A DNA stretch of 23,040 nt. It comes from a virus. Lineage: Duplodnaviria; Heunggongvirae; Uroviricota; Caudoviricetes. Where the stretch lies: IMG/VR virus record IMGVR_UViG_2671181056_000005, positions 1-23,040 of that record; one strand, 5' to 3'. The position numbers and the translations under genes are program-made. How positions within the stretch are numbered: position 1 is the stretch's first letter; every line of letters starts with the position of its first letter. The notes beneath the pieces were generated by a model. That model saw only the letters and a list, made by a program, of their open reading frames with translations, had not been told where the DNA came from and ran no database searches. Below are positions 3,065 through 4,974 of this stretch, piece by piece.

Positions 3065-4249
3065 TTATACAGCCTCTAAAGGGCTTAAATCAAGTTCTAG
3101 GTCTTCCGGTTCCAAATCGGCTAACGGTGCATTCATCCACTTAGCTAAATCTTCATCGGTTACGACAAAATCCGGTTTTTCTTCCCATTCATTAAGATAC
3201 ATCGGACGATCTGGATTTGCTGCGATATATTCATTAATGAAGTTTAATGCTTTCTTGAGAGTTTTAATCGGGCGTGTTTCCGTCCATCCATCCGGTACAT
3301 CATGTTTTGAGGCAGTCTTACCCTTAACATGAATCTTTAACCCTTTCTCTAAGTCGATTGCTTGCCATCCCTTTTCAAACAGATGATTGAATATCAATTC
3401 ATGTTTGTATGTGGATAATTTGGCTTGTTGTTGCATTCTCTTTTTAGAGTTGGAGGCGAAACCGATTTTAATAAATTCATCTCCTAATTTCTGAATATAG
3501 AGATAAGTCGGACGTGTCTTGTCAATTCTTCTTAGATTATATTCGCCTGTTTCTAATGAACGTTGGTTTGAAAGGCAATCTGGACAAATCAGGATTCCAC
3601 GGTCGCAAGGTTCACGGGTAGTTAAATCCCAATCACCATGATGTGGACAATTACAGCGCAAGAGTGTCTCTCTTACTCCCTTCTCTTCTGACAACCAACA
3701 AACGAAGGTGTATCCGAACTCTTTACACAATTCCTTAATCTGCGCTTCTCTCTTAGCTCTCAATTCAGTGAGTGTATTACATCCGTTTCTACGAGCCAGA
3801 TTGCTCTCTGCGGTGCAGCATGAACAGTTTAAATTTCTACGGAATGCCAGATTAAGAGGGGTAGTAAATTCTTCGTTGTGTTTCAAGCAGAGAAATTTTG
3901 CTTTGGTTCCTTTGACGTGATTGTACTCGCCATCCCAACCTAAAAACTGTTTCCCTTCCTGTTTCCCCCGTTCTGTTAGTTGGATTTTATATCCTTCCTC
4001 ATTCCTTTTAAGACTTCCCCCATTGATTTGATTTAACTGTTTCAGTGCATGAATGCTGGAAAGTCCGGTAGGTTGATATGACACCTGAAAACGGGCTTCT
4101 ACTCCTGAGACATACGGTAAAACGAAACCATCGAAGGTTAATCCGTGTTTCTCACACTGTTTAATGATTCTGGCTTGCACTTCTTCCGGTGTCTTCTGGT
4201 TTGGGTGAGTCTTAACAAAAACAATCTCGTTTGCAAATGCTAGTTTCAT
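3065..4249 (-). CDS. Zinc-ribbon protein with T5orf172/GIY-YIG-like motif, 394 aa; long paralog of the 189-aa protein
   Basis: Two Cys clusters (CLKH...CSCC; CNCPHH...CPDC); TYLYIQKLGDEFIKIGFASNSKKR resembles the T5orf172 pattern; GAGG RBS 8 nt upstream of ATG; acidic C-terminus. Confidence 0.55.
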   Translation of the reverse strand: MKLAFANEIVFVKTHPNQKTPEEVQARIIKQCEKHGLTFDGFVLPYVSGVEARFQVSYQPTGLSSIHALKQLNQINGGSLKRNEEGYKIQLTERGKQEGKQFLGWDGEYNHVKGTKAKFLCLKHNEEFTTPLNLAFRRNLNCSCCTAESNLARRNGCNTLTELRAKREAQIKELCKEFGYTFVCWLSEEKGVRETLLRCNCPHHGDWDLTTREPCDRGILICPDCLSNQRSLETGEYNLRRIDKTRPTYLYIQKLGDEFIKIGFASNSKKRMQQQAKLSTYKHELIFNHLFEKGWQAIDLEKGLKIHVKGKTASKHDVPDGWTETRPIKTLKKALNFINEYIAANPDRPMYLNEWEEKPDFVVTDEDLAKWMNAPLADLEPEDLELDLSPLEAV

Positions 4250-4308
4250 AGTAGTTTCCTCTAAAATTATAAGTTCACTACTATTTATTGAAGAGAATTA
4301 TCTCACTA

Positions 4309-4337
4309 TTGCATCTGTGCTCACTTTGATATATAAT
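4309..4337 (+). promoter_or_regulatory. Sigma70-like promoter for the 189-aa gene
   Basis: TTGCAT (4309-4314), 17-nt spacer, TATAAT (4332-4337); GAGG RBS at 4396-4399. Confidence 0.45.
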
Positions 4338-4404
4338 CCGCGACCCTAAATCCCAAACCAACCATATTGAGGTTATGCCTATAAGTTAAAAAAGTGAGGT
4401 CTAT

Positions 4405-4974
4405 ATGATTCCAGTAATGGCTAAAGATATTGTTTTTACTCCTAAATCCTCCCGTGCTGTAACTCCATCGGCATTAGAACAACGCATTCTGACTCACATC
4501 AAAGAGAAGGACTTACCGTTAGTCTTTCATGGCTTTCTGGGTGAGTTTAAAGGGCTTCATTCAAGAATTGCTCTTACATGTACCCGATGCGGCAATAGAG
4601 CCGACAAATCAGCTACCAACCTGCTTAATGAAGGTAAACGCTGTGCTTGTCTCAAAAGTGATTACTTTCAATATAAAGCGGGTGTGCCTTATCTCTATGT
4701 AATGAAATCAGGGGATATTGGTAAATTTGGTGTAACAAAGTCAATCATCAAGCGACGTGTTAATCTGGGTGTACGCAATCCCGGTCATAACTTTGATATT
4801 GTCTTTGCTGGTGAAATGCCATCAATGAAACATGCTTTAGCCACTGAAAGAGCAATAAAGCGATTACTGGATGTGGGTATAGGCGGGATTGAATACGGCA
4901 AAACTGAAACATTCCACTACTGCAATAAATCACTAAACAATATAAAGAATATTGCAAGTGTGGAGTGGAACTAA
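4405..4974 (+). CDS. Zinc-ribbon protein with T5orf172/GIY-YIG-like motif, 189 aa; short paralog
   Basis: CTRCGN...CAC zinc ribbon; PYLYVMKSGDIGKFGVTKSIIKRR matches the T5orf172 pattern; N-terminal segment resembles repeated modules in the 394-aa protein. Confidence 0.55.
   Translation: MIPVMAKDIVFTPKSSRAVTPSALEQRILTHIKEKDLPLVFHGFLGEFKGLHSRIALTCTRCGNRADKSATNLLNEGKRCACLKSDYFQYKAGVPYLYVMKSGDIGKFGVTKSIIKRRVNLGVRNPGHNFDIVFAGEMPSMKHALATERAIKRLLDVGIGGIEYGKTETFHYCNKSLNNIKNIASVEWN

Follow-up and report, generated by a model that had tools for sequence, protein, structure and literature searches.

Two divergently transcribed genes in an Escherichia coli prophage encode proteins that belong, near certainly, to the CapR/T5orf172 family, and we favour the reading, with a probability of about 0.6, that both are free-standing selfish nuclease genes of the homing-endonuclease type; DNA cleavage, targets and homing are inferred. 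The genes lie in a stretch of viral DNA of 23,040 nucleotides (nt), referred to here as the window (Duplodnaviria; Heunggongvirae; Uroviricota; Caudoviricetes; IMG/VR record IMGVR_UViG_2671181056_000005, positions 1 to 23,040); the window corresponds to the integrase end of an E. coli prophage, ~38 kb long, whose tail module is of siphovirus type. An earlier reading of the sequence by a model (the original prediction) had singled out the pair as paralogous zinc-ribbon and T5orf172-like genes around a promoter, compatible with a selfish, defence or anti-defence module. The open reading frames (ORFs) are as it described them, one of 394 amino acids (aa) on the minus strand (the long gene) and one of 189 aa on the plus strand (the short gene), separated by 155 bp. 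Among the roles it allowed for, the selfish one is favoured here, although the two genes do not make up one module.

Two paralogous proteins of the CapR/T5orf172 family

Both proteins score above the Pfam cut-off of 24.2 bits for the CapR homology domain (PF21817), the long protein with 39.1 bits over two stretches and the short protein with 25.2 bits. The zinc ribbon proposed for both is thus supported, but its Cys4 form holds only for the short protein, and the long protein has mixtures of Cys and His. The long protein also differs from the prediction in having three CapR-like repeats, the first of them devoid of zinc ligands, in place of two N-terminal modules; the acidic tail expected at its C terminus is present (Table 1). 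A hidden Markov model (HMM) built from the N-terminal half of the short family matches the long protein at aa 4–53 (independent E-value (i-E) 1.2e-7) and aa 101–146 (i-E 1.2e-3). Repeat 2 is found in only 6 of 14 aligned alleles, and C201, H204 and C222 of repeat 3 are invariant in the aligned alleles. In the short protein, the single zinc-finger module (aa 1–88, C59-x2-C62...C80-x-C82) has a spacing of 17 residues, compared with 24–26 in CapR.

Direct comparison of the two proteins by BLASTP gives weak matches, with E = 0.004 for the N termini and E = 0.038 for the YLY...KIG nuclease core. Their family profiles align across the N-terminal module, the zinc ribbon and the C-terminal nuclease domain (probability 98.3%, E = 2.5e-14), and the paralogy of the long and short proteins is therefore real. 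Profile searches, whose failure would have refuted the original prediction by its own terms, recovered both the T5orf172/GIY-YIG relationship and the similarity between the two proteins.

Several lines of evidence support the nuclease assignment. PHROG 681, annotated as 'endonuclease', is matched by the long protein at E = 2.6e-40 and by the short protein at E = 2.5e-18. At E ≤ 1e-3, an exhaustive profile search recovered 2607 cluster representatives, many of which contain repeated stretches, two to nine in number. Among 74 diverse homologues, domain matches were to CapR (58), MUG113 (21), DUF4379 (15), DUF723 (8) and T5orf172 (5), with 26 of the 74 matching MUG113 or T5orf172 at E ≤ 1e-3. The relatives P0026 (PF10544) and P0010 (PF13455) have precomputed domain matches, and one allele carries the RefSeq name 'GIY-YIG nuclease family protein'. 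NCBIfam gave no meaningful match for the proteins, and a sequence search of the Protein Data Bank (PDB) yielded chance matches only (E > 0.1).

Structure prediction is consistent with these assignments. The AlphaFold2 (AF2) models of both proteins are confident, and both end in a beta-beta-alpha-beta-alpha domain with the alpha/beta fold of the GIY-YIG clan (T5orf172/MUG113, Pfam PF10544/PF13455). In the long protein, a unit of one helix, three strands and a short helix recurs at residues ~20–75, 84–137 and 160–217, and residues 248–344 form a beta-beta-alpha-beta-alpha-(beta)-alpha domain that is followed by the acidic tail, modelled with low confidence. The short protein has a single CapR-like unit and the same C-terminal domain, and its best structural matches are SLX1-type structure-specific GIY-YIG nucleases. 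A Foldseek search against viral models gave 205 matches at E ≤ 1e-3, with names referring to CapR-homology, zinc-ribbon, GIY-YIG or homing-endonuclease proteins.

The conserved residues fall in this domain. Y251, K261, G263, R271 and E301 of the long protein are invariant across the 74 homologues, and E324 is nearly so. The short nuclease domain (aa ~94–185) contains Y98, K107, G109, R117/118, E148 and E168; among 40 diverse homologues these positions (R118 in the case of the Arg pair) are invariant. Judged by sequence, both nuclease domains are apparently intact, with no sign of degeneration.

Table 1 Coordinates of the nuclease genes and associated features in the window
Feature	Position	Strand	Details
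Bidirectional hairpin terminator	3028..3049	both	Separates the convergent recombinase gene from the long gene; 9-bp stem with 5 G-C pairs; kept in relatives
Long gene	3065..4249	-	394 aa; three CapR-like repeats, T5orf172/GIY-YIG nuclease domain, acidic tail; AF2 mean predicted local distance difference test (pLDDT) 91.8
Acidic C-terminal tail of the long protein (residues ~355–394)	3068..3187	-	Ends ...DLELDLSPLEAV; pLDDT 64–71
Nuclease domain of the long protein (aa ~245–345)	3215..3517	-	T5orf172/MUG113 type, GIY-YIG fold; from conserved residues and model
Long repeat 3 (aa 158–236)	3542..3778	-	CapR homology domain, C199-x-C201-x2-H204...C222-x2-C225; Pfam CapR 8.5e-10, aa 167–211
Long repeat 2 (aa 81–157)	3779..4009	-	CapR-like zinc finger, C121-x2-H124...C145-x-C147; i-E 1.2e-3
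Long repeat 1 (aa 1–80)	4010..4249	-	N-terminal module common to the short protein; CapR-like fold without zinc ligands; from HMM and model
Divergent intergenic region	4250..4404		155 bp
Putative sigma70-like promoter of the short gene and helicase operon	4309..4337	+	TTGCAT, 17-nt variable spacer, TATAAT; conserved in relatives
Four-codon mini-ORF in the leader, MPIS	4375..4389	+	ATG CCT ATA AGT TAA, GAGG ahead; ends 15 nt before the short-gene ATG
Short gene	4405..4974	+	189 aa; one CapR-type zinc-finger module and T5orf172/GIY-YIG nuclease domain; AF2 mean pLDDT 87.3
TAATG overlap	4972..4976	+	Short-gene TAA stop (4972–4974) overlaps helicase ATG (4974–4976); arrangement kept in relatives
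UvsW-like helicase gene	4974..6464	+	Pfam UvsW_N 1.9e-34, plus ResIII/DEAD/Helicase_C
Tract 96–100% identical to the virulent Krischvirus RB49	6426..6742	+	Helicase 3' end and uvsW.1

The nuclease-like genes are exchanged and lost, and their paralogues inserted

We compared the region across ~25 related prophage loci (denoted by L and a number). The position of the long gene is constant among them, convergent with a large serine recombinase gene (1297–2991 in the window), whereas its content is not: the gene body (3080–4209) has been exchanged, between conserved 5' and 3' ends with boundaries at 3079 and 4210, for alleles that are only 31–65% identical and that differ in their number of finger modules. 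Short-gene alleles likewise differ by up to 55–60% and retain identical 3' ends. For both genes, then, alleles that are more than 50% different elsewhere have identical 3' ends, a pattern that indicates recombination within both. The clearest tract is one shared with L002, in which the window has 14 mismatches over 4339–5672 (1334 bp, 99% identical) and only 2 of them in 4339–5203. This tract is centred on the short gene; its left edge, at 4338, coincides with the promoter -10 element and a non-homologous long allele, and to its right identity falls to ~65%.

The two genes move separately. The long gene travels with the recombinase end and the short gene with the helicase, and an obligate two-gene system is ruled out by five loci that have the long gene without the short gene and helicase. 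The short gene, by comparison, is never found alone, being directly upstream of the helicase gene in 13 of 13 loci. The predicted translational coupling of the two (TAATG) is present in the window, and the same 1-nt overlap occurs in L002, L019, L029 and L030, which have four different short-gene alleles; in L028 a 2-nt gap separates the genes.

Loss of the nuclease genes is recurrent (L003, L007, L010, L013, L014; L023, L031, L032). One variant has a double deletion of 3074–4238 and 4315–4866; what remains is a stub of 7 codons from the long gene and, from the short gene, its final 35 codons. In the second, of DEC5A type, nothing of the long gene is left but its final ~48 nt, which are fused into a 65-aa ORF beside an M15 peptidase gene; this form was found in unrelated strains from three sources. 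Because loss variants circulate in unrelated strains, the genes are dispensable. ETEC1738 was considered as a pristine empty site and rejected, as it carries the double deletion with remnants.

Related nuclease genes, on the other hand, show clean presence and absence. A third paralogue, of 348 aa with three CxxxH...CxxC fingers and a T5orf172 domain, is cleanly inserted in L029, as 1.1 kb of extra DNA that separates the recombinase gene from its upstream neighbour; it is also present in L015 and missing from L019. The two copies (L029 6981–8027 and L015 578–1570) encode proteins of 348 and 331 aa that are 96% identical to each other and ~25% identical to the long protein, and in both loci nuclease genes flank the recombinase gene on both sides. 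In isolated phages, the closest homologue of the long protein is a 361-aa ORF of the Krischviruses Whisky (QZI94019.1) and JK32 (QEG05484.1), which is 33% identical to it and collinear over aa 1–354. This ORF is a clean 1125-bp insertion between uvsW and uvsW.1, where RB49 has a 43-bp spacer only; between RB49 and Whisky, identity is 95% in the left flank and 73% in the right.

The acidic tail distinguishes the prophage alleles from this homologue, which ends at the equivalent of residue 354. Its last residues, DLELDLSPLEA(V/L/A), recur in prophage alleles whose identity elsewhere is ~31%, and also in the DEC5A-type remnant ORF of 65 aa. The motif could serve to dock some partner or could simply mark a recombination junction. 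A role for ELDLSPL in binding the beta clamp, suggested by a resemblance only, was set aside.

The short gene precedes a helicase gene of probable T4-like origin

The UvsW-like helicase gene downstream of the short gene is a three-way mosaic. Positions 4899–5650 are ~98–100% identical to L002, and 5790–6340 are ~65% identical to L002 and 91–100% identical to L006 and L019. The third part, at the 3' end, belongs to the tract shared with the virulent Krischvirus RB49 (Table 1), outside which the helicase gene is 60–75% identical to that of RB49. The UvsW.1 protein encoded in the tract is 100% identical to that of RB49; among the first fifteen related prophage loci to be compared, a UvsW.1 was detected in none. 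The RB49-identical patch and the identical UvsW.1 indicate that a temperate prophage and a lytic T4-like phage exchanged DNA very recently.

The relatives vary in how much T4-like DNA follows the helicase gene: L019 has a 51-aa UvsY fragment and L030 a full UvsY of 135 aa, fragments of UvsW-1 occur in L028 (44 aa) and L029 (93 aa), and L027 retains only a 161-aa UvsW_N stub. The helicase module looks to have been captured from T4-like phages and then repeatedly remodelled. In the T4-like phages, which are the source of uvsW, there is no gene of the short type upstream of uvsW.

A conserved candidate promoter between the divergent genes

The near-consensus sigma70 promoter of the original prediction survives in part. 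Seven loci, which between them have six different long alleles, all show TTGCA and TATAAT, with T or A completing the -35 element; the spacer of 16–17 nt is variable, and the leader of ~65 nt is conserved. The -10 element is perfect, but the -35 element matches at only 3 of 6 positions, and a consensus promoter scan found no site in 4250–4404, with TTGCAT/TATAAT below its threshold. From this pattern of sequence conservation, TTGCAT/TATAAT is a plausible promoter of the short gene and helicase operon; no convincing promoter was found for the long gene. Of the repeated motifs noted here, CTCACTWT is locally enriched, with three of its four copies in the window at 4302–4398, two of them specific to the window and the third overlapping the ribosome-binding site, but TATAAGTT, with two copies, occurs at chance level.

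The leader contains a mini-ORF (Table 1) whose start codon is ATG, GTG or TTG elsewhere and whose AGT codon is replaced by the synonymous AGC. These start-codon variants and the synonymous change suggest that the mini-ORF is translated. The leader RNA folds no better than shuffled sequences (z = 0.09) and matches no Rfam family.

Prophage setting and distribution

The prophage is integrated in hicB or ycdX of E. coli chromosomes. Among 5426 complete E. coli genomes, 57 carry its recombinase gene and 17 its helicase gene, and none carries the long allele of the window at the DNA level. A DNA search with region 3000–5000 gave no match among phages (distant mode) or plasmids, and a search of genome contigs with the short family gave none either.

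Within the recombinase gene (1351–2850), blocks of 69–77% identity to relatives stand beside blocks of 95–100% identity. As this gene is itself mosaic, recombination here is not restricted to the borders of the nuclease genes.

The tail module comprises genes for a 1258-aa tail tip protein (8821–12597), a tape measure protein (14327–16756) and a major tail protein (18172–18645). The prophage also has the T4-like genes for a gp38-like adhesin (17491–17997) and a gp37-like distal subunit of the long tail fibre (18702–21914). The combination of a siphovirus-type tail module with T4-like genes (8821–21914) gives a second indication that genes have flowed in from T4-like phages. An intact transposase gene (21913–22893; 326 aa; PHROG 3598, E = 4e-174) adjoins the tail-fibre gene, and copies of the insertion sequence IS1 break the same prophage in several relatives, including the helicase gene of ETEC1738.

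Discussion

The architecture of both proteins is already described for T5orf172 homing endonuclease genes (HEGs) in ICP1, T5-like and other phages. These HEGs carry repeated CapR, DUF723 and DUF4379 fingers as 'beads on a string', adjoin essential genes and genetic-exchange boundaries, and recombine between alleles (Barth et al. 2023, PMC10448857). Like ICP1 gp174, gp165 and gp121 and their counterparts in T5-like, Plateaulake and VpaJT-like phages, the window proteins have CapR-type CxxC...CxC fingers followed by a C-terminal T5orf172 domain, with a variable number of repeats, a position beside essential or replication genes and exchange boundaries, and recombination between alleles. They differ in being carried by a temperate E. 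coli prophage that encodes a large serine recombinase, and not by a virulent phage, in the loss of zinc ligands from repeat 1 of the long protein, and in the extra conserved acidic C-terminal tail of the prophage alleles; their identity to T5orf172 members of isolated phages is only 24–34%. The Krischvirus ORF of Whisky and JK32 shares with the long protein the N-terminal motif, the layout of three repeats plus nuclease and the association with uvsW. Unlike the long gene, it lies downstream of uvsW in a virulent myovirus, lacks the acidic tail and is cleanly present or absent relative to RB49.

More distant systems supply precedents for the separate parts. CapR, a 15.5-kDa repressor of the Vibrio cholerae PLE satellite, binds a -35 region, with specific DNA binding shown by electrophoretic mobility shift assay, and its zinc-finger domain is common to putative T5orf172 homing endonucleases of ICP1 (Netter et al. 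2021, PMC8096241). This DNA-binding domain is homologous to those of the window proteins (PF21817); CapR has no nuclease domain, whereas theirs is kept and apparently intact. The T5orf172 domain of Odn (ICP1 gp88, the origin-directed nuclease) is a proven nuclease, inactive in the E180A mutant, that cleaves DNA where the N-terminal domain of Odn binds (PMC8263062); the window proteins share its conserved catalytic Arg and Glu but are without its RepA_N domain. The T4 enzymes I-TevI and the Seg proteins are also modular, joining nuclease, linker and DNA-binding parts including a zinc finger, and are encoded by free-standing genes between conserved genes, where they cause marker exclusion and co-conversion of flanks. 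In I-TevI, however, the nuclease is N-terminal, the reverse of the order in the window proteins. These further differ from the T4 GIY-YIG enzymes in having Lys in place of the 'YIG' Tyr (K-x-G), and their DNA-binding domains are unlike those of I-TevI and Seg, with no detectable sequence similarity.

On the homing-endonuclease reading, both proteins would be site-specific DNA endonucleases, steered to DNA by their CapR-type modules, of which the long protein has three and the short protein one. Related phage genomes would meet in one cell, as prophage with prophage or as prophage with a T4-like Krischvirus, and the nucleases, probably acting when such genomes co-replicate, would cut a cognate site near their own locus in the genome that has not got that allele. 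Recombinational repair would then copy the nuclease gene and its flanks into the cut genome, and the expected outcome would be the allele cassettes, near-identical tracts and mosaic boundaries of the kind seen here.

Several findings weigh against this interpretation. Direct Pfam matches to T5orf172 stay below the cut-off of 20 bits, at 15.9 bits (E = 0.019) for the long protein and 13.5 bits (E = 0.11) for the short protein. The original prediction had proposed synteny as a check for insertion, and the outcome is divided: the paralogues are cleanly inserted, but the forms in which the window genes are 'absent' retain remnants and are deletions. The long gene occupies nearly always one fixed locus as diverse alleles, a pattern that would fit a selected specificity determinant too, and mosaicism is widespread in the region, even inside the recombinase gene, so that not every boundary needs a nuclease.

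In a rival reading, one or both proteins are domesticated competition or defence nucleases, which would be expressed from the prophage and cut superinfecting temperate phages, or Krischviruses at or near uvsW; the lysogen would benefit as ICP1 does from Odn, and the allelic diversity of the zinc fingers would track the targets. The location in the integrase-proximal accessory region of the prophage is in keeping with such a role, as is the variation of the DNA-binding repeats of the long gene in number and sequence around a conserved nuclease core. T5orf172 nucleases have, moreover, been repurposed in phage conflicts (PMC8263062; PMC10448857), and the DNA exchanged between the helicase locus and Krischviruses attests to physical encounters. 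We nevertheless consider this role unlikely. Neither protein matches any defence model of PADLOC-DB at E ≤ 0.1 (the helicase gives only generic helicase-domain matches), variants without the long gene circulate widely, and the short gene, co-transcribed with a replication and repair helicase, is probably a lytic-phase gene; defence of this sort also overlaps with HEG-mediated marker exclusion, from which it is hard to tell apart.

The constant pairing of the short gene with the helicase gene, and the 1-nt overlap that the window shares with four loci carrying four other alleles, could instead mean that the short protein works together with the UvsW-like helicase, as a nuclease on branched or stalled-fork DNA that the helicase unwinds, and that its gene is not a selfish one; the structural resemblance of the short protein to SLX1-type enzymes would suit such a role. 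Physical linkage is, however, enough to account for the co-occurrence, T4-like phages manage without such a gene upstream of uvsW, and the N-terminal CapR zinc finger points to sequence-specific binding. Divergent short alleles with identical 3' ends are a signature of recombination rather than of co-evolution with the helicase. We hold a partnership to be improbable. Slighter still is the chance that one or both proteins are chiefly regulators, in the manner of CapR or of I-TevI as an autorepressor; they would then act as repressors of the divergent promoters or as parts of a lysogeny switch, and their nuclease activity would be secondary or lost. CapR is itself a repressor that binds a -35 region (PMC8096241), the divergent layout places motifs in a cluster at the promoter, the intergenic region is conserved except for the promoter spacer, which varies from one long allele to another, and a Pfam search of ten other small prophage genes recognised no canonical repressor. 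Yet the catalytic residues are invariant, unlike in CapR with its lack of a nuclease domain; the -35 and -10 elements and the leader are constant whichever allele is present, so that operators do not clearly co-vary; the window-specific CTCACT copies are explicable by linkage; and prophages without both genes, or without the long gene, persist in unrelated strains. A lysogeny switch of the cI/Cro type, or a recombination directionality factor, was rejected as the main role on the same ground, the genes being dispensable in circulating prophages.

A bolder extension of the homing-endonuclease reading, which we regard as decidedly speculative and rather unlikely, is that T5orf172 nucleases associated with uvsW shuttle genes between the temperate siphoviruses and the virulent T4-like Krischviruses: after a cut at uvsW or close by, repair would be templated by the uvsW homology that phages of both lifestyles share. 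This would explain why a lambda-like prophage has a captured T4-type uvsW/uvsW.1/uvsY module, as well as the RB49-identical tract at 6426–6742 and the insertion of a homologous nuclease gene between uvsW and uvsW.1 of some Krischviruses. In a variant of the idea, the conserved acidic ELDLSPLEA tail may dock the long nuclease onto a partner such as the integrase, the helicase or the sliding clamp.

These results do not overturn current understanding. They give two 'hypothetical proteins' of a widespread E. coli prophage lineage a concrete assignment as CapR-finger/T5orf172 nucleases, and extend to a temperate phage a family on which most work has been done in virulent phages (ICP1, T5-like, Krischvirus). 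With its many alleles, which differ in how many zinc-finger modules they carry, this single locus offers a compact natural system for studying how nuclease specificity changes. Most interesting are the temperate setting and the traces of exchange with virulent T4-like phages, for recent exchange of this kind bears on how the lytic and temperate gene pools mix.

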